Positions 3,027-27,902 of a stretch of DNA of 64,000 nucleotides are shown one piece after another. Positions within the stretch are counted from its first letter, which is position 1. Each line of letters starts with the position of its first letter. A model generated the notes under the pieces. It was not told the origin of the DNA, made no database searches, and saw only the letters and a list, made by a program, of their open reading frames with translations. Source of the DNA: Octopus vulgaris. Its lineage: Eukaryota. Where the stretch lies: the NCBI GenBank assembly GCA_951406725.2, contig OX597824.1:44020001-44084000 (forward strand), in the 5' to 3' direction. The translations under genes were made by a program, and so were the position numbers.

Positions 3027-3357
3027 TCAAAGTTTCAGTTCGTTGGCAATTTTGGATGCAATATTTTTGAATCCTATTGATGTCCCTATAATCCGTTTGA
3101 AACGAACACCATTCAATGACAGTCTTGGAAGCTTGCACACTTCCATCTCCCATTGTACTAAGCTGTCTATTTTTGGATCTCCATGGATGCAGAGCAAGAG
3201 AAACTTTTCCCGTTGCTCATAATCACAGTTGTTTGAATCCAAGACTTTGCGAATTTCTTTCATCATATCATTAGGATCCATTGAGCTGGTCGTTTTCATA
3301 CTCCATGTGAACCTCAACGAACGCGGCTTAACTTGATCTTCTTTATCATTCACTGAC
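3027..3357 (-). CDS. MARK: MARK/PAR-1 last coding exon, KA1 domain (alternative in-frame acceptor extends it to 3372)
   Basis: (R)[109 protein letters not shown] matches the canonical MARK KA1 C-terminus. TGA at 3029-3027; acceptor CAG at 3360-3358. Confidence 0.97.
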
Positions 3358-4023
3358 CTGCGGAACAATTTGCTGAAAATTAGAAAGATAATCGGTAGGG
3401 GAAATCAGAGGACATAAACTAAAAGGATTTTAGAATTAACTATAATTTAAATAAAAAGAATATAATGGTTCTTATTGGAAAAACTGAAGTAATTTCTTTG
3501 TGAGGAATTAAAAATCCTCATAATCAAAAAAAAAAAAAATAGGATGAAATTAGGAAAGCAACTGTTCCTTTCTGTATGAGCTTTTTAGAACAAAACAAAA
3601 AATTTGTATCTATGAAAGAGACTAGAGACATTTTTAAAAAGAATGTAAAATAAGTACATCAGTTTCAAAGAAATGTAATAATTTCATAGAAAGCAGAATA
3701 AATTCTTTTTAAAAAACTAGAAAGAAAAAGAAACCAAAAGGAAATTGAAATAGGATTAACTAAAACATTTATGTAAAATATTTCTGGTTAAAAAACTAAA
3801 TTGCTATGAAAGGATAAAGGCTTTATATGGAGGTTTGGGAAAGAGGACCAAGTAACTGTAAATAGGGGATATTAAGATTAAAAAAGGCCACATTGAACAG
3901 AAGTAAATATTTTGCATGTAACATTTAATGAACTGAACAAATATGAACAAAATGTTGGTGTATGTGTAGATATACGAAGGTGTATGCGTTTGAGTTTGAG
4001 TTTTTATGTGTGTATGTGGTTGT

Positions 4024-12526: not shown

Positions 12527-13521
12527 AATATATACAAATGCATATATATGTATGCATGCACATGCACAAAATCTCCTGGCATATGCTTATACAAGTTAGT
12601 TGTTACATGCGAAAGAAAGAGAAGGAAAAAAATCAGAAAATGTTGAGTGGGGAGGAAGAAAACAGTAGAAAAGAGGAAAACGAAATAAAAAAGAAACAGA
12701 AAATTAGAGAGAGAGGAGGGGAAGATATATAGGGGTAGAAAGTATTACTTGATGACATTAGAAAAGTATCCAAAGGCGATTAGATACTTTGTTTAGTTTG
12801 CACATTGAGCACATAAAAATGCACACATAAAATGACGTATATCTATTTAAATACAAACATACATACAAATACATCTCCACACATATATAAAAGTATATAC
12901 ACATATATGTATATAAATATATACACATATATATATGCACACACATACCTACAATACATACACAAACATATAAATATGTGTATGTAGATGTGTGTGCGTA
13001 TATGTGTGTGTGTGTGTGTGTGTATATATATGTGTGTGTTATATATATATATACACACACACGTACATAAATACATATATGTATATATTTATATATACAT
13101 ATATAAATGTGTATATACTTTTATATATGTGAGCATGTATTTGCATACACATTTTTTGTATATTTGTATGCGTATCTATATGTGTATTTGTATGTTTGTA
13201 TTTAAGCAGATATAAATGTAATTTTATGTGTACGTTTTTATGTGCACGTTTTTATGTGCTCATTGTGCAAACTAAATGAAGTATCTAATCGTTTTTGGAT
13301 GCTTTTCTAACATCATCATGTAACACTCTCTATCTATATATATCTTTTTCTTGTTCTCTAATTTTCTTTTTTCTCTTTTCTACTGTTTTTTTCCTCCCCG
13401 CACACTATTTTCTGACTTTTTTCCTTCTTTCTTTCGCCTGTAACAACTAACTTGTATTAAGCATATGCCAGGAGATTTTGTGCATGTGCATGCATACATA
13501 TATATGCATTTGTATATATAT
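12527..13521. repeat. Long inverted repeat (about 350-bp arms) with a microsatellite-rich spacer
   Basis: atatatacaaatgcatatatatgtatgcatgcacatgcacaaaatctcctggcatatgctt... / ...aagcatatgccaggagattttgtgcatgtgcatgcatacatatatatgcatttgtatatat. Arms at about 12527-12875 and 13178-13521. Confidence 0.9.
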
Positions 13522-14508: not shown

Positions 14509-16371
14509 CTGTGAAAATTCAAGTAATGTTAATTTTGAGTCAAGTTTTTAATACAAATAAATATAAACTCAACAAAATGTGTTGAGAGTTTTCTTTCATC
14601 TGTCCTTCCTATCTTTCAAGATATCTAGACACACATACACTTTATATGTTTCCATCTACCAAATTCCACTCACAAACTGAAACTATGGTAAAAAAACACT
14701 TGCTCAAGGTGTTGTGTGCATGTAGAGAAAACTTCTTAACCACAGATCATCATCATCATTTAACATCCGTTGCCCATGCTGGCTTATTCTTTTCTATTTT
14801 GTGAAAGGTTTTTTCTGTGAGTCCTTATTTACCAATCCAGAGCAATATAGATTTTACCTATGTTGAATGAAGTAACTATATATGTAACAATTTGCATAAC
14901 CAAATTGTAAATGGTTTCCTTTTATTTATAAGTCTGTGATCGATAAATAGTGTACTGAAGTGTTTGGATCCAATGTTAGAATCTAACATACATACACCAA
15001 ACCATTATATCTTTTCTTACTCTTATACATACTTTTACAGTGCTCACAAATCAAACCTCAGTTATGGGATGTTTTATAAAAGTAACTTCCATGCTGTAAA
15101 TAAGACTTATATGAACCTCACTATTTCCTCCAACCTCATCTAAACTTTACAATTTTGAAGACAAAAAATGAAAATGGGGTGGGGGATTGACATCTAAGAT
15201 GCAGGTAGAAATTTACGGCAGGTTCTCAGCAAGCAATTACTTTTCTTCTTATTCTCCCTATTCTCAATCTTCTTTCATAGCTTCACTTCAATGAGTTTGG
15301 AACTGTAACACAATAGTACTAATAATTGATATATCAAATGATAAGAAGTTGAAATTGGAAGATATAATAATGAAAGTTATTCCAATATTTTCACAAGGCC
15401 TCAAACTTTAGCAGAGGATGTAATTGATTTATTCTATTACTGGTATTATTTTATCAACCCATAATTTCTTATAATTTCTGAAGAAATTTTAAGATTTTTA
15501 ATGACACAAGTCAAGCAAATTAATTCTAATTAGAAATTAAAAAACTGATTAGTCTCTTTGTCTCTTTCTGGCATCAGCTAATAACAATTTCTGGTTACAT
15601 AGACAAAATTAGAAATGTTTAAGCTAGAAAGTAAAGTAGATGAGAAGTTTCAACATGATATTCCCGAAGTAGTCTGATTAAAACCTAAACTAGAAGCAGT
15701 TTCAGCTTGCCAGTATTGTAATCCATTTTGCAGCATTCAATGTTAGTTTTGCTTGATGCTATCTAAATTCAGACTTGAAACAACAGTAATTTTTTAATAT
15801 TTCAATTAGGAATATCTATTTGCTCCCTTTTGTTGGGAACTGAATGCTTTCTAAGTTAGTGGATCAATTATATGGTGAGAGCAAGAAAAATATAAAGAAA
15901 ACGTTTAAAAAAAAAAATCTCTGAGAAAGTTTGTTTCAAGCAAAAAAAGCATGAGGATACTGTTAGAGAAACATGTAAGTTACAAGCAGATTTAGCTTTG
16001 AAAAATCTACAATTGCAGAGAGTTAGTGGAGGTAAAGACAGACTCAGTTATTGAAAGTTAATTAGTGGGAGAGGAAAGAGAAAAGAAAAATAGAAAGATA
16101 GAGCGCAAAGATCAGAGATTGCATGAGGAAAAGAACCTAGGTAGAGCAGAACATCCGAGAGTAAAGACATATTACAAGAAGAAATAAAATATTCTAAAAC
16201 ATTGTACAATAAATTTAGAATAATTATCAAAATAAATAATTGCATTCGGAAATTATATTTTTAAAAAGATTTATGAGAAAGAAAGAAAATTTAGAGGGTA
16301 AAAAGATGGACAAGCAATATGAAATGTCTTGCCCTAGTGGACTAGTGTGCTATTCAAAAAGGTTTCCTCAC

Positions 16372-16407
16372 CCGGGGGTATCTGTGTATGCCCTTCTGGG
16401 GTCACCA
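16372..16407 (-). CDS. Candidate 36-nt alternative microexon of MARK (SGDPRRAYTDTPG)
   Basis: Strong acceptor ttttttaatttcttccag and donor CGG|gtgagg. Phase 2-2 and frame-preserving, GC-rich against an AT-rich background. No transcript evidence is available. Confidence 0.55.
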
Positions 16408-18852
16408 CTGGAAGAAATTAAAAAAGCTGTCACCTTATAAAGAGTAAAAACGAGATATTTTAAAAGAAAATTAGCCTAAAAGATTCTTATGGGAGAAAAA
16501 AAAATCATACAAATCTCCGGGTGGGGTGTTGCCATATTGGTAAAGCAAAAGCATTACTTAACACTAAACTACAGGGACTGGATTAGTCAACAAGAGAGTT
16601 TACTAGTTTTCACTGTGATGCAATGAAAAGACAACAATAAAGCAGCTTATAACTAGTTTGTATTTGAGTTATTGATGCCTTCCCTTCTTTCAGCAATGAT
16701 CTAGACGGAAATATATATTTTGTATATAGATTACAGAACTGATTATTATGCTATATATTTATCTATTTATTATTATTATTATTAATTAGTTTATTATTAT
16801 TATTAATCTTTATTGAAATAAAAGTTTACATCAAATTATGAAAACACAAGTTTAGTTTACAAGTTATTCACCAAAGTATATTTGCTACATTTTATTTACA
16901 AAAAGCTATTTAAATAATTTCTCAGGGGTTATCAAGGATGGTTATCAGAATGGAAAGAACTAAACTGAACGTAAGAATAGTTTTCAAATTCTGATTTGAG
17001 TGTTTTATGGGAAAAAAGAATTAATGTGTCTGTGCATATAAATATTACAAATTAGCAAATACCAATTATGATTTATTCCCTAACCCTTATAATCTGTTGT
17101 GTAAGATGTTGAGTGGGCAGTCATCTCACAAGACAGCACAAATTCATGGCAACTCAGACTAATAAATATGTTTTCAAACATGAACATAAGCAAAATACAC
17201 AAATTATGTTAATATTAAGAAAAACAATAGCTACAAAAGAAAAAAATAAATAAAAATAAAATAAAAAATATAAAAAAGAAACAGTTTACAAATCTATAAA
17301 ATAAAACTTAATTTGTTTATTTAGTTTAAATGTAAAATTATTCCAACACATACAAAAAATTTTAAATGTTAAAAAGAAATAAATAAAAAAAATACTCAGA
17401 TAAAAGGGAGAAAAATAACCCTAACATTTGACATCTGTAACAATTGGACAGAATCAAGAAACAGAAGAATACATCATGAATTCTTCTCCTTCTGATGCAA
17501 AGTTTATGAATGAATTTGGATTTTATGTGCATTTAGTTTTGTATCAAATTTGTAAAAACTTCACTTCAGGATATGCAGAGAAAACAACATAAGAGCAAAA
17601 TAGTAGCTAGATAAGATAATAAAAGCAAAGAAAAGCCCTACAAAAAGAAAAGATGCTAGGCACAGCCAACCACTCATCCCCAACATCTTCCCATGAGCCA
17701 ACAGAGCAGTCTCTATGCAGGCATCTGGCTCGCTAAAAACAGAAGCCAAATCTCTTTCAGATCATATCCTTGCTATGCTAAAGAAAGGAAGGCACTGAAT
17801 CATATAGTCTGAAAAGGATTGAAAAAGATGGGATAGTTGCAATTCAAAGAATATTGATTGTAAGACTGCTTGACTAGGGCTTGGTTGGAGGGGCCAAATG
17901 ACACTCATATCTACCACCAATTAAAATTTTCGTTATGTTAGCACAATAATATTTCTGATAGATATAAAATTGATGTTGGTCGAATAGACCGCTTCTCATC
18001 TAAGACTCCTCACTGCTTTAAATTATTATTGAAATATATGAAGAATACTGAACATGATCTAAGAATGTTTTTCTTCTCTCTCTCTCACTCTCTCTTTTTT
18101 TTTGTTTTGTTTTTCCAACAACTATTGGATATAGTTAACTGCTGCTAAAAGAAGGTAGGCAGGAGAATAATATTAAGTTTAAATCCAAAAGTAAAAGTGT
18201 AAATAAAAACCCAAAACAAAACAAGACTTTCAAATATATATCCAATAAACTACTGAAACTGAGGAAAAAGACACAATTGCTAAGTCATCACAAATTAATT
18301 GATAAGACAAACAAGGAATTGCCAGAATATAGATAAGATTCAAGAGAAGGCAACTCAACATAACTGAAAAATTTTTAATAAAGGATATACTAATAACTAT
18401 AAGGAAACAAATGAAAAAATTGATTACCCATAAATATAAGGAAAACAGACATCGTGCACATGTTTCTTGGAATCTGAAATAATAATTCTCAAGAAAACAA
18501 TAGAAATTCCAACCCATATCTTCCTAAGTGGTGTTGAGAAGTATTTAATGAAACTAAATGGTAAAGAATGAAGCAGAGTTTTATGATTAGAAAATTGGAA
18601 AAATTCAAACAATTTGAACACACACACAACTTAAAAAGAAACAAAGAAGCTTGTATTATTAAAGTGTATGTGTGGCACATGAGTGCATGTGTATAAAGTG
18701 CATGTATGTACCAACACACATACACAGCTATACATATATACACAAACACTATTTGAGAGGTAACAAAACGCTGTAATAACAGTGGTGGTGAAGATGATGA
18801 GAAGGTGTGATGGTTGAGAAAGGGGTTGGAAAATACACTCATTAACACTTAC

Positions 18853-18930
18853 AAAGAGACAGCAACCATCTTACGAGAGACGACGTCATCATATTACTTC
18901 AGTTCCAATTGGCGGAGACTCAATTTACTC
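18853..18930 (-). other. Candidate stop-containing alternative exon of MARK
   Basis: cttcctgaacag|GAGTAAA...CTCTTT|gtaagt. In phase 2 it reads RSKLSLRQLELK*. Four CpGs are retained in a CpG-depleted intron. Confidence 0.35.
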
Positions 18931-21523
18931 CTGTTCAGGAAGTAGAACATGGGAGTTAATAATGTTGCTGTGATGGAGAAGGCTAACAAGATTTAGTAGA
19001 CCTGTCCTATTCTATGGTTAGCTAATACTAATAACTAAAAATACAAGCTGTCCGACTTAGTATAAATGATAGTTTCACAGCACACTTAAGTGAGATACTA
19101 GCTGTAATACTGTTTTAACGGATAAACTGACAAGCCAGTATAAATTTCAACTAAATTCCATAGGTAAAATCCAATGTGAGAATTTAGCAGCTCATGAAAA
19201 AGAGGGGAAATAGTGGTAGATGAATTTAGAGAATTTAATTACAGATATGTTCGGAAATCGAATATATAAGTAATGTTTCCCTAGGCACTTTGCATGAAAT
19301 TATTGAGACCATATACATTCTCCTGTGGCATGCATTAGAACTAAAAATTAAAAAAATAAAAATTACATTATATGTTTCTGAAAAGAAATGACAACAAAAT
19401 CAAAGTCAAAATAAAAAGAATGAAAAGAAAAATAATAGAAATGAATGAGACAATTTTCCATCAACTAGTATGGCAGTACCACAGCACAGACACTGTCAAA
19501 TGACCGAAGCTAGTGAAAACAAGATATGGTGTGGGAAGCAGTTTTAAGGAGTTAAAGTATTAAATAACAACTACTTGTTGTAGGACAAAGACACAAAAAG
19601 TTGTATATCAACAACAGGTGAAGATGTAACATTTCTAAGTATATGCTACAGAAAAAATAAAAGATGAGGTTATAAATGTGAAACTTAAAGAAAAGGGAGT
19701 TTTGTTATATTTTACATAAGGAGGAAAAGAGGGGCCTATCTAACATTTTAATTATTCAGAAATAAAGCCACACTGTAAATTCACACTTGAAACAAAAGAA
19801 ATGTGTGGCACCAGTTACTGCTGAAGTTTTAAATGTTTCCATAATCAATCAAAAGAAGAGGATTGTAGAGGAAAATAAAACATTGGTGATTGTGTGAAAG
19901 AAAATTTGTATGGTCCAAGATGACTTAACATACACAAAAATTAATGAACAACTAAATTAACTAAAACACATGCAAGTTTACACCGACAACAAAATACAAT
20001 AATCTTTACCAACCAAAAACTATTTCAATTATTTTCATTGTGTGGATAGGAATTAAAGCTAAATACATTTAGTCAGACATCTATTTATGCATTTTGGAGC
20101 CAAGTGTTTTCATATAAATAACAAAAAGCCAAAGAATACTAAGCTAAGATAGATGAAAAGATACCTTCCTTAGTCATAAGCTAATAGAATTTCCAATTAA
20201 TGATGTGAAAAGAACTTATCTCTAAACTTAAATATAAGAATATTTAACAGAAAGACAAATATTTGATCTTCTTAAATATGAATGATAGGTAATTGAAAGT
20301 TGATATTTTTGTCTTTACCAAAAAGTGATTACCATTAGGGAACAAAACTAGATAATGCACTAGAATTTACTGCTATACCAGAATCAGCCACGCTAACAAT
20401 TCTTAATCAAGGCACAAACCAAGGACTTATACAGAAAATGAAAGGAAACAAGTTATTCCATGATTGCCTTTCCTAATAGCAGAAGTTTGCAAATATTAAT
20501 TAAAATGTCTTTTAAACAGTTCCCCAAGAATCTAGTCACAAAGATATATAGCTAGCATTCACATTGGAGTCTGTTAACTTAGTAAACAGATACAAAGCAG
20601 CATGAAGTCACCTCATAAAATCTATAGTTTTCCAGCTAGGTAGATCTCAGCTTCTCTTGCATGTAGCACAATTCCACTGCAGTAAGTGAATTTAGTTATT
20701 CTCTAATCTTTCCTTATCAAGAGAAAAGGCAGTCCATATGATCCTTCACAGAGTCCCCTAGATTAGTAGGAGAAAGGTATCCTCAAACCAGAGACCTGGT
20801 CCAAATGCTTAAAACAGATTGGCCTCCACTTAAGGTCCCCAAAGTGTCAGTGCTAGTGTTATACCAGGTGACAGGTTAACTCTACCACACAAGGTTTTTA
20901 AGTTTAGTGATGAAAGTGATTTGGGATTGCTTTTTAATTGTACATCACCAACACAAATTCTAAATTTACTTATCCTCAAATTAAATTGGGGTAAAGAAAC
21001 TTCTAAATTTTGCTGGTGTTCTTAGCAAATTTAAATTGTTTTGCTACTCAATAAGGAACAGCACTGGATGCCATCATACATGATGTTTGTAACAAAATGT
21101 TCTGGGAAATTAGTCGTAACCCTAGAGAGGGTAAAATATAACCACCAAATTCGCAATTGATATAGATTTAATCATTATACATGTAAAAAGCTTCCACAAG
21201 TCTTGTTGCAATAATGATAATTGAAACAATCTATAAACCTTGTTTCATGCCTATTCTATGTGCAAAATGCCCAGAAAACTGTACATAGACCTCTTAAAAC
21301 TACACTGGCCACAATAAGTTTAAGACAAATGATGACAGTTCTATTCCTAATATATTTTTAACGAAACTGTATAAAATTTCTTTTCACAGTTTATGTAGAA
21401 TTTTTTCTCTTGCGAATGATATAGGTGTTATATATCTTTCTACAACTTGAATAATTTTAATGCACAATTAATTCATATGATTAAAAACTGTCAGCAAAAT
21501 AAGTTTTTAAGACTGTACTAATA

Positions 21524-21808
21524 TTGGAGTTAAGATTATTTGCCAACATAACATGGCAGTCCTGGTTTAGGACGAATGTTGCTGTAATTTAGCCACAGCA
21601 GACATTGTCTCCAGCTGGCTATACGACATGACCTGTGTCCTTACATTTCTGAACAAGGGGAATCATGCACCCCACTTGTTTGAAAATATAAGGACACAGA
21701 TTGTGTCATACAGCCAGCTGGAGACGATGTCTCCTGGGGCTAAATTACAGCAACGTTCATCCTAAACCAGGACTGCCATGTTATGTTGGCAAATAATCTT
21801 TACTCCAA
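21524..21808. mobile_element. Fully palindromic fold-back MITE nested in the Tc1 element
   Basis: About 137-bp arms ttggagttaagattatttgccaacataacatggcagtcctggtttagga... / ...tcctaaaccaggactgccatgttatgttggcaaataatctttactccaa around a loop of about 9 nt. Confidence 0.85.
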
Positions 21809-21949
21809 AGTACTGTTGCTGAATATCTCTCGTTGTGAGATTTAAAAATAGTAATTTTCAAGTGTACTAATATTATTTTGGATTATTTTGTTTAAATTGG
21901 AAATTTCTGGTACAAATGATCAACAAACAAAAAATTTATTATTAGTATC

Positions 21950-22942
21950 TAGTTCCATAGCCATTATTTTCAATTATGACCATACAATGGGAGGACATGG
22001 AGTTCGACAAATAAGCACAAAAATCACTTGGAAAGTTCTGCCATATTTCTTCAATAAAATTATATAATTGGAACAAATGTGTTGGTTTCTTAGCATGAAC
22101 TCTTTTTAGAAACATAACTCTATAAGTTTTTTATTGGATTCAAATTTAGGCTCTGCTGAGGCCACTCAATAACCACCATATTATTGCACTCAAAATATTG
22201 CAAAACTTTTCTAGCCTTATGAACAGGGCATTTGTCCTGCTTGAAAATAGATTCCGGTGGCATCTGCTTATTTAAATATAGCTGCACATTTTCATTTACT
22301 AATTGCAGATAGCCTACACTGTTCAGTCTGCCATCAACCTTAACAACTGGACCAGCACCATTACCTTCAACCCCCACCCCGTTTGCGCAGTTTTCTTGAC
22401 ATACTTAGGATGGAATTCTTCAGTTGGACAGTGTCGAACATAAGTCTTTCCATCAGATCCAAAATTGCAGATGCGGGATTTGTTGCTCCAAAGAACTTTT
22501 GCCCAGTCTTCAGTCATCCACTCAATATGACTTTTAGCAAACTTGATCTGCTTCTGCTGGTTCATCTCAGAAATTTTCAACTTCTTTCAAGCAATCCAGC
22601 CAAACAGTCCAAGTTCTTTTTGGCAGTTTCTGACAGTTTGTGGTGTAAAGCTGATGTCAGTTGCATCAGATAATTGCTTGCAAATGTCCACTGCTGTTAG
22701 CATTTGGTTACCTTCAGAGAGCCTATGAATTCCCGATTCATCTGTACTGTTGTCTTTTTCAAAGCACCCATTCTTTGCCAATTTTTGTATTGACTAGTGC
22801 TTTGATAAAGCTTCCATGCTTGAACACAAGCCATTTTGCTGCATTCTAATCGCTTGCTAATGTTCATGAAGGACACATTTTGCTGATCAAGTAACACAAT
22901 CTCTGATCTAATAACTGGACTGATACTATGACACTTTCCCAT
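21950..22942 (-). pseudogene. Frameshifted Tc1 (DD34E-type) transposase
   Basis: Fragments: MGKCHSISPVIRSEIVLL (paired-like HTH); FAKSHIEWMTEDWAKVLWSNKSR (degenerate WSDES); FKQDKCPVHKARKV; WPQQSLNLNPIKNL (degenerate WPSQSPDLNPIENL). The 3' boundary is approximate. Confidence 0.9.
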
Positions 22943-25900
22943 ACTGAATTAATGTGTAACAATGCTCAATTATTAAACAAAATAGTGCAGTACGACCAGC
23001 CATATGACCACCCTTTTAATTTATTAATTTGCATAATCTTGGTACAGTCTTAAACTTATTTTGCCGAGAATTTCTAATCATTTGAATTAATTGCACATTA
23101 AAATTATTTGAATTGTAAAAAGATATCTAATTCCTATATCATTCCAAAGAGAAAAAAAATTCTGCATATACTGTAGAAAGTAAAATAATTTTATACAGTT
23201 TTGTTAAAAATATATTAATGAAGGAATGAAATTGTCATCACTGGTTTTAAACTTATTTTGGCCAGTGTATAATAAAGCAGTTTTCATACACACCTGGATC
23301 TCATACTCCAGAAAGTTTCCACTGAATCAACAATGTCAATAATGAGACAGAAAAAGGTATAACAATAAGTAATCTTGTGCAAGTATGTGTACACAGTAAA
23401 GACCTAGAATTGTGTTACACTCATTGTTATGCTTCCAAGAAATGCATAAGTATATAGCTCCATTCTACCCAACTTATAACAGGCTCTAATCTTTCAAAGT
23501 AATACTAAAAAAGAAGGGCAATCAGCTATATAAAAACAATTGCTCCAACAATAGGTAAACAGCTAAAATGGCTAAGTTATTTGTAACTCAGAAAAACTAA
23601 TGTAAACAGTATGAAAGAAAATAAAATTTCACACATATATATAACCAATATCAGCATGGAACACAGATGATAGATGAGGATGATATAGTACAGATTTCAG
23701 TTGTAGCTATGCAAAAACCTATTTACTTCCATCATTCTCTGCATAGTGAATGTGTGTATCTATTTACTCATATAAACATGTGCAAATGCAGCCTGCACAC
23801 ACTATGCACAACATTTTACAGTATTTTTGTATGCTGACAAAAATTAGATAGAGTATCTTATTACAATCCTTAAAGCTATCATGTGTTACTTCTTTGCTTC
23901 TTCCCTTCGGTTTTTAAACATTTGACCTTAGCACTTCCTTTCATGCCTTCTGTAGTCGAGTGAAACCAGGTGGAAAAGAGGTAAGAGTTGTTGATGGTAT
24001 CACATCAAATAAGACTTAGAATAGAATCAACTGTAACAGATTTGGGGCAATATAAGGTTTCAGATGCATGAAGAAGTGCTGTATTCCAGACACATCCAAT
24101 GTATGCAAGTACAGAAATCTAGACAATAAGGTAACAATGGCATTACTTATACATCTAAATAACTGTAAGTCAAAATACATACACCTAAAATATTTAAGCA
24201 ATATCTTTCTGATTAGAAGTATTCTTGTATAGTAGACAACCTGTGGTAGTAAGAAATACTTGTAGCCATTTACTATTTTGGAGTGAATGCCTGAGAGGCA
24301 GGGAGGTGTGTGTGTATGTTAGTGTGTGCGTGCACACGCGCAGAGCTAAGATGTTAATTGGCTTAGGAAGCCCTAGTTAACTTTGCTCAAATAGGGCTGT
24401 TAAAAAGAAACCAAGTTCATGCTGCATCTCTGGCAGCTCTATGTAGGCAGGCAGCTATAATTTATTATACAATCTGCCAGACAGTGTAGAATGACTTACT
24501 TCCTTGTAGCATTCAAATCAAAACGGGTAGGCTGAATCAACCATCATACAATTAAAATTTAGAAATATGGATTGCCAACAGCAAATAACTATAAGATTAT
24601 ATAATATGTTGTGCAGTGAGATTATAAGTTATATAGAAAAAGTTTGAATTAGGCAACATACAAAATGTGTGATATGCATATATTTCAGTTCATCTTATAA
24701 ATTACCCATTAAAGTCTATTCACATCACCCAAAATTTTCCAAGCTCTAAAGTTGCACCCACTGTGGCATTGAGGATAAGGATAATCAGGGTCTGAACATC
24801 TTGTCCAGTTACTGCCATCACTGCATATATACATAACTTCAGTCAACTTAGGTGTCAACATCTTACACTCATATTCCACTAATAAAGTAGTCAACTGCAT
24901 TTAACAGTAAAACCTCAAGCTCCAAAAGCATATCTATCTAAATTTACTAAACTCATCTCATCTCTCAAGTAATATTTGGTACATAAATCCAAAACAGTGG
25001 TATGTGTGTGTGTGTAAATTATGTGGATTAAGTACTATACAAAAACGTTTTTAACAGTAAATTTATTACACTCTCATCAAAAGATTTTAATGTAATTGCA
25101 TCATTGAAATAAATTCATTTTATAATATTTTGCAAAGTATTGTAATATTTAAAAAAAATTATTTCATTATTATTACTTCTTATTCTAAAATAAGACATAT
25201 ACAGAGACTACAATTGAATAATAAATTTTGGAGTTTTAATTTTGTCATCTAAAACTGAAAATGCTGTTAAGGTTGGTGTGACTGCATGTGTGGGTGGTTA
25301 TAAATAAATTAAGCAATATGTAAATTATGCTAAAACTATTCATTTACAAGTTCTTCCCATGTACAGAGAATTTAGTCTGCACATAACTTTTTTTTAAAGT
25401 GGGGAGAGTATTGAACGTCGAAGCAAATAAAAAAAAAGAGAAAAAAAATTGCAAGGGGAGATAAGCTATCCTCTAATGGAGGTGATCTAAATTTTATATT
25501 GCAAGTTTGAAACAAGTCTACACCCACATACACATGCATATGTACAGATTATTTTCACAGTAAAAATAAACACAGATCGCTGATGAAGGATAGATTTCAT
25601 TTCTAACACAAAAAAATGCTTATCTTTTACCTTTCAAAGACAATTTTCAGTTGTCTCATTCATGTAAGACTGAGGGAAATTTTAGTTCAATCATTTGATT
25701 TTAGAGTGAAATATGCAGTAATGAAATAGAAATAGAACCAGTTTGTCAATAAGGCAAGCTGAAACAAGCAAAGCTATGTGCCTTTACTAGGAAAACAAAC
25801 ATAATGTTTGAACCTAAGACAGAGCATTGTAACACCATTGCCTCAGTTATTGTGCATCACCATTGCTGATAAATATTTATCAAAAAAAAAAAATCCCCAA

Positions 25901-27674: not shown

Positions 27675-27902
27675 CTTCGACTAAATTTTGAAGTTAGTTT
27701 GTTCAGGAAAGACACTCGAGCTACTTGTCCGGCTGTTGTGGTATCCTGAGTATGCCCAGGAACACCAGGGCCGTTATATTGGTTGAACTGCCGTCGGTCC
27801 CTAATGTGGCCTCCGTGGAATGTATTTCGGCCTGCTGTGCCTCGGAATAAAGGCTTGTTTGCAGCAGGTGATAAGGGAATTGAAGTTTTCCCTTGAGCCG
27901 GT
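27675..27902 (-). CDS. MARK: MARK/PAR-1 internal exon (spacer region ending in the basic LTSKFSRR motif)
   Basis: ttttcag|ACCG...TCGAAG|gtaagt, 228 nt, phase 2-2. PAQGKTSIPLSPAANKPLFRGTAGRNTFHGGHIRDRRQFNQYNGPGVPGHTQDTTTAGQVARVSFLNKLTSKFSR contains the conserved RxTFHG and KLTSKF motifs. Confidence 0.95.

Follow-up and report, generated by a model that had tools for sequence, protein, structure and literature searches.

RNA stems that close over a donor splice site are known from several genes, ISTL1 of SMN2 being one of them, and the intronic complement that pairs with the GluA2 exon lies downstream of that exon. In the excerpted text of PMC2724269, the stem at exon 10 of human tau is described as donor-masking, and in Drosophila CG33298 a donor is masked by a box located 185 nt away, an arrangement backed by compensatory rescue. 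Passages of PMC8052449 report that complementary regions of human pre-mRNA are depleted over active splice sites, and that the conserved ones tend to be obstructive and show enrichment for A-to-I sites. The Q/R and R/G sites of GluA2 are exon:intron ADAR substrates located near donors (PMC1920255, in excerpt), and of the 492 splice-site edits counted in human cells, 385 fall on the 3′ AG, not on the donor (PMC5991522, in excerpt). In cephalopods, whose RNA editing has been studied mostly as recoding, one survey describes edits that alter splice sites as very rare (PMC9699675, in excerpt).

Here, we analyze a stretch of 64,000 nucleotides of the Octopus vulgaris genome (contig OX597824.1; hereafter, the window), in which an original prediction, made from the letters alone, had placed a microexon whose donor pairs with an upstream intronic complement and may be edited. 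A literature search, with large editing-site tables outside its scope, found no description of the element or of the exon.

Results

A Cassette Microexon in the MARK/Par-1 Gene

The window is AT-rich, and its minus strand, on which all features described below are located, carries the 3′ portion of a gene for the cell-polarity kinase MARK/Par-1. The exons of the kinase domain are found in the adjacent 40 kb, and the remaining exons were placed by tblastn. The upstream exon (27675..27902) matches Octopus vulgaris MARK proteins with 100% identity and ends with ...SFLNKLTSKFSR in phase 2, while the last coding exon (3027..3372) encodes the KA1 domain and has alternative acceptors at 3372 (which adds KLFRR) and at 3357. 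Just ahead of the KA1 exon, inside a 24-kb intron, lies a cassette microexon of 36 nt (16372..16407), the sole candidate of its kind within this intron at the scan thresholds. It is in frame (phase 2/2) and, as seen in proteins and junction reads, inserts SGDPRRAYTDTPG in place of R, the 12-residue insert falling in a probably disordered region. Its length exceeds the 3–30 nt microexon cut-off given in the excerpted part of PMC9929638. The acceptor region (16408..16434) contains the AG, a pyrimidine tract and, judging by consensus, a candidate branch point at A16430; the donor GTGAGG occupies positions 16366..16371. An alternative terminal exon (coding part 18894..18930), which encodes RSKLSLRQLELK followed by a stop and is represented by protein P0023 and five junction reads, yields a MARK isoform without KA1.

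The microexon is spliced in at the predicted site. In run X24, which comes from organism D (a close relative), 101 raw reads span the junction between 27675 and 16407 with the CT..AC joint expected from acceptor use, the inclusion junction is also present in contigs of runs X7 and X16, and the exon is found in annotated proteins. Use of the donor is documented by 75 X24 reads that leave at 16370 and join the last exon at 3357. Skipping is seen in run X17, in which a contig joins the upstream exon directly to the last exon. With canonical sites, a preserved frame and both inclusion and skipping observed, the exon is a cassette, and the possibility that it is never included, which had been raised along with the original prediction, no longer applies. 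As estimated from a depth table, the X24 read depth is ca. 120 on the microexon versus 108–131 on the upstream exon; inclusion in X24 thus looks high, and it follows that a stem would block little in this run.

The microexon peptide is present in 17 of 55 collected proteins: 14 of the 21 octopod ones and all three decapodiform-like (squid/cuttlefish-like) ones, in which it is identical. The latter assignment is inferred from their near-identity to the cuttlefish protein P0008 outside the aberrant ends of P0008. The remaining seven octopod proteins comprise four clean skips, one with another terminal exon, one that ends at the upstream donor and one with an aberrant junction; four annotated cuttlefish proteins read into intron sequence at the microexon position. 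None of the 25 bivalve and gastropod proteins contains the peptide, although scallop proteins have two other small optional inserts at the same pre-KA1 position. Two additional protein searches returned no further orthologues with the microexon, and a degenerate scan of metagenome contigs gave no matches. The peptide therefore appears, from the proteins compared, to be coleoid-specific, Nautilus being outside the sample.

Predicted Pairing of the Donor with an Upstream Intronic Arm

A C-rich island in the intron (16506..16526), 100–120 nt 5′ of the microexon, is complementary to the 3′ half of the exon and its donor. Both arms were found where they had been predicted, as was a 12-position core (16526–16515 with 16366–16377) interrupted by two mismatches only, C16524 × A16368 and A16516 × C16376. 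A16368 is at once position +4 of the donor and the A of the in-frame TGA; A16516, on the intronic side, belongs to the second A:C mismatch. The complementarity holds for the 7-bp core (16523–16517) and for a second helix of 5–6 bp formed by GUAUG and CAUAC, and does not extend across the full length of the arms, the two helices being separated by an internal loop.

In local folds (four windows at four temperatures), the core pairs 16523–16517:16369–16375 were predicted in 16 of 16 cases with probabilities of 0.96–1.0, placing the donor under the helix and the acceptor inside the loop. Folding of 1.0- and 1.6-kb segments at 20 °C left six of the seven core pairs at 0.80 or above and lowered the outer pair to ca. 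0.3, and A16368 paired with the downstream U16126 at 0.85–0.86. Prediction of the helix over the donor GU is thus robust, unlike that of the A:C mismatch at +4. The core would cover the donor from exon position −4 to intron position +3, and in the same model the core duplex is worth −17.1 kcal/mol versus −12.2 kcal/mol for U1 paired with the donor. The region between the branch point and the acceptor of the microexon is partly paired in the folds; the corresponding regions of vertebrate neural microexons are reported to be unpaired (PMC12871342, in excerpt). A cryptic second exon ending at GTATGA within the upstream arm was considered and rejected: no frame-preserving acceptor was seen by eye, and no such joint occurs among the 15 of 18 joints listed.

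When the 221-nt segment 16340–16560 was folded, as had been proposed earlier as a check, its stability was no greater than that of shuffled sequences (z = −0.06); the z value for whole-segment stability at 20 °C was −1.6. The upstream duplex itself (−21.4 kcal/mol) was reached by 14, 18 and 7 of 2000 dinucleotide shuffles of the upstream 150, 300 and 500 nt, respectively, and 9 times when the donor arm was shuffled 2000 times; the donor arm is bound equally well by 12 of 398 intronic tiles from elsewhere. As a single test, the complementarity is above chance (p of ca. 0.005–0.03); after allowing for look-elsewhere it is weak, and the excess is modest overall. The window contains the core 7-mer CACCCGG a single time on the minus strand, at a distance of 147 nt from its partner, and the adjacent 80 kb likewise contain it once. 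When 16 donors of the MARK gene were compared (with the other 15 exon boundaries set approximately, by script), that of the microexon had the strongest upstream duplex, the next one being −15.5 kcal/mol. One other donor of the gene has an equally strong downstream duplex (−21.6 kcal/mol), another is covered by an upstream helix with p = 1.0 at three of four donor positions, and a third by a local helix with at least 0.93 at all four.

Copy Number and Conservation of the Region

The 301-nt region, the two-arm pattern and the arm at up to two mismatches each gave one match in the genome. Rfam gave two weak matches in 15500–17500 and none over the feature, octopus miRNAs that Rfam does not list being beyond its reach.

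Sequence retention was followed with 21 sampled 31-mers of 16330–16560, run X1, a possible source, being left out of the comparison. The fraction of these words retained is 0.81 for organisms B and C (DNA runs) and for other runs of organism A, and 0.71 for the DNA runs of organism D (15 of 21 intact); a common deletion of 1 nt within the T-run at 16496 accounts for part of the loss. Seven intronic pieces from X16 contain 164 differences in 3493 letters, a divergence of 4.7%. The probability of at least 15 intact words is 0.030 at that divergence, 0.15 at 3% and 0.36 at 2%. These values hint at constraint on the region around the microexon, at the level of the region and not localized to the arm; no covariation was seen in these species, which are closely related. 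Protein binding is a frequent reason for conservation around small alternative exons.

The In-Frame Stop and Read-Through

At a phase-2 donor of the GTAA or GTGA type, the next codon is read from the letters that follow the initial G, and an in-frame stop whose last A is position +4 therefore always results. The upstream exon gives the same by-product: proteins P0021, P0040 and P0055 end with FSRR directly before the stop. The original prediction held that editing would convert the TGA to TGG and extend the reading frame. Neither the TPG end nor TPGW or GNLFE was found in any of the 55 collected proteins, and a transcript using the TGA is hardly visible in X24, where there is almost no read depth past the microexon donor. 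The nearest ATTAAA and AATAAA hexamers lie 570 and 935 nt downstream (at 15798 and 15433, respectively); with no poly(A) hexamer within 570 nt, a read-through form would need a retained 13-kb intron. The read-through claim is accordingly dropped.

Candidate Editing Sites

ADAR disfavors a 5′ G and sites close to helix ends. Both mismatched As, at 16368 and 16516, are indeed in a G[A]G context, as the original prediction had itself cautioned, and the helix ends 2 bp from A16368, which in wider folds pairs elsewhere. The favorable neighbors and long duplex of a site-selective ADAR substrate are therefore lacking at both. The exonic A16387 fits better: it stands in U[A]C within the second helix, and A-to-G change there would convert Tyr to Cys. 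Argonauta hians protein P0032 reads RRACTDTPG, with Cys at the 16387 codon and an adjacent second change, V to M. This Cys amounts to a single transition, seen in one protein whose sequence was probably predicted from a genome. On the sequence context, A16387 may be considered a better editing lead than the mismatched As, as a candidate site.

Positions 16368, 16387 and 16516 are not among the 40 of 394 difference rows listed, and intronic depth in X24 is near zero. Since differences of nearly 100% at well-covered exon positions are listed, near-complete exonic editing is unlikely in X24. MARK names were not found in supplements of PMC8382921, PMC4384741, PMC7192619 and PMC9699675; the files are small, and other tables may list the site. 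Pairing of the antisense strand through G:U at the same positions, a further caveat attached to the original prediction, was dropped, the gene being on the minus strand and the X24 library looking unstranded.

Conversion of either A:C to I:C, with I modeled as G, is predicted to strengthen the duplex by 6.4–6.8 kcal/mol (from −20.1 to −26.9 or −26.5). The effect on the donor is small: A-to-G change at +4 shifts predicted U1 pairing from −12.2 to −11.4 kcal/mol, i.e., by 0.8 kcal/mol, which lends little support to the expectation that editing would weaken the donor. The main predicted effect of editing at the mismatches would thus be a stronger stem, which the original prediction had left out of account, rather than a weaker donor.

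Discussion

The reading that we favor, tentatively and at slightly less than even probability, is that the upstream complement may act as an editing-independent splicing silencer by pairing with the microexon donor. The upstream arm is transcribed before the donor, and CACCCGG could therefore capture the donor as it emerges and compete with U1, much as the boxes of CG33298 and the stem of tau exon 10 do (PMC2724269, in excerpt). A closed stem would lead to skipping, and its opening by proteins or helicases would lead to inclusion. The KA1 domain and the basic patch ahead of it have roles in membrane binding and phospho-regulation. Inclusion would split the basic SKFSRR patch with a 12-residue insert that holds RxxT and TP motifs, and might in this way tune membrane binding or phospho-regulation.

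It is nearly as likely that the exon is real and the pairing incidental, the C-rich island being either a protein-binding splicing element or neutral sequence that matches the G-rich donor by chance. The equally good matches in other intronic tiles, the whole-fold z value of about zero, the confident helices at other donors of the gene and the high inclusion in X24 all agree with this, as do nearby motifs at ca. 16555–16540 and 16590–16583, which we take to be YGCY-like and ACUAAY-like splicing motifs. What speaks for the silencer reading instead is that the exact 7-mer is very rare here and yet lies within 150 nt of its partner, that the second helix continues in register, and that just 7–18 of 2000 upstream shuffles do as well. 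If the region's repeat content is considered, MITE-like foldbacks do occur elsewhere in these introns, and the original prediction had named terminal inverted repeats of a multicopy MITE as an explanation of the two arms. The element is, however, single-copy by all three genome searches, and the coding exon that forms one arm is conserved in coleoids, which, at the sensitivity of the searches, leaves this explanation with almost no probability.

The arm might also be an editing-complementary sequence for ADAR that serves to recode A16387, or to lock the stem through I:C at 16368 and/or 16516 and so promote skipping. We regard this as unlikely. In its favor are the heavy editing in coleoids (PMC8382921, in excerpt), the Argonauta Cys, the more frequent replacement of edited As by G during coleoid evolution (PMC7703385, in excerpt), the 5′ U of A16387 and the predicted stabilization by I:C. 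These points have to be set against the difference rows listed, which include none of the three sites, against the Tyr in all three decapodiform-like proteins, which are probably transcript-derived, and against the shortness of the helices (7 + 3 + 5 bp), the 5′ G of the mismatched As, the place of A16368 near the helix end and its alternative partner U16126; the Argonauta change is moreover one transition in one protein, beside V to M. The fuller scheme, in which ADAR editing of 16368 and 16516 to I:C would lock the arm on the donor as an editing-controlled and possibly temperature-dependent splicing switch in coleoid neurons, accompanied by Tyr to Cys at 16387, is quite improbable. More improbable still is that +4 editing weakens the donor and turns TGA to TGG, giving a KA1-less protein that ends in TPGWGNLFE instead of TPG. 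The reading frame does run as this proposal requires, but such a stop arises at any phase-2 GTRA donor, neither end is seen in proteins, retention of the 13-kb intron finds almost no X24 reads beyond the exon, U1 pairing hardly shifts, and a KA1-less form is already made through a separate terminal exon.

If editing plays no part, as in the preferred silencer reading, the locus would add another donor-masking stem to those known, located on a previously annotated exon. The 160-nt element, with its conserved microexon, donor and candidate complement, is nevertheless a compact test case for structure-controlled splicing and for the coupling of editing and splicing in a coleoid.

Vertebrate MARK2/3 have small exons of 27 and 45 nt before the KA1 domain, and the small cassette exons of scallop MARK/Par-1 stand at the same position as the octopus one with an unrelated peptide. 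Like the pairs described in PMC8052449 (in excerpt), the octopus arm is an intronic complement near a splice site; what defines those pairs is that both boxes are deeply conserved, whereas conservation here is indirect and comes from one close relative. The likeness to GluA2 consists in an imperfect exon–intron duplex with A:C mismatches beside the donor. Unlike that of GluA2, the octopus duplex is short and broken, a G precedes each of its mismatched As, its complement lies upstream, and editing is a candidate activity. In form, the stem resembles those of CG33298 and tau, where the donor of an alternative exon likewise lies under a short helix, with the partner 185 nt away in CG33298 and ca. 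150 nt away here. In contrast to both CG33298 and tau, the partner is located upstream of the exon, so that the stem, known here from prediction, encloses the acceptor and half of the exon.

Sequences around the microexon and intronic inverted repeats

In wide folds, a stretch downstream of the microexon (16140-16125, minus strand) is the predicted partner of positions +3..+11 of the microexon donor, a pairing that, according to the same models, would compete against the upstream intronic arm's outer pairs. The sequence immediately upstream of the arm (16590-16540, minus strand) contains UGCU twice, along with one motif that resembles ACUAAY; these are possible splicing-factor sites. Compared to the window, a T-run at position 16496 carries a 1-base deletion in sequencing runs X7, X16 and X17, which is either a polymorphism or an assembly slip.

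A strong complement is also found downstream of the donor of a 51-nt exon located at 53797-53747 (minus strand). At -21.6 kcal/mol it equals the microexon-donor duplex in strength, and the modelled pairing probability at this donor is only about 0.5 at 37 C.

The intron downstream of the microexon houses nested long inverted repeats (12528-13519) with arms of 62 nt (100% identity), 32 nt (97%), 66 nt (88%) and 187 nt (71%). This region is a foldback or MITE-like element that, as long dsRNA, would suit ADAR far better than the microexon-donor duplex does. Additional inverted repeats are present at 21280-23290, with outer arms of 36-106 nt and a 137-nt repeat (88%, 11-nt loop) at 21524-21808. 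Since many reads from other genomic copies map to 21500-21860, this segment is a multicopy transcribed repeat.

Alternative exons of MARK

Two tandem paralogous exons, with peptides TIMKDKWMNIG... and TIMRDRWINVG..., are located directly 3' of the kinase domain in L004, the DNA that lies, in minus-strand direction, upstream of the window end (L004:3468-3367 and about L004:2895-2791, minus strand). They are alternatively used; since either form is present in octopod and decapodiform-like proteins, the pair is probably conserved and mutually exclusive.

Five junction reads and one annotated isoform revealed an alternative terminal exon, RSKLSLRQLELK*, at 18930-18894 (minus strand). It yields MARK without KA1, with a C-terminal end similar to the usual ...ANELKL*. 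The KA1 exon itself has two acceptors, separated by 15 nt (3372 versus 3357, minus strand), by which KLFRR is added or left out before KA1, and this optional KLFRR is likewise found in bivalve proteins.
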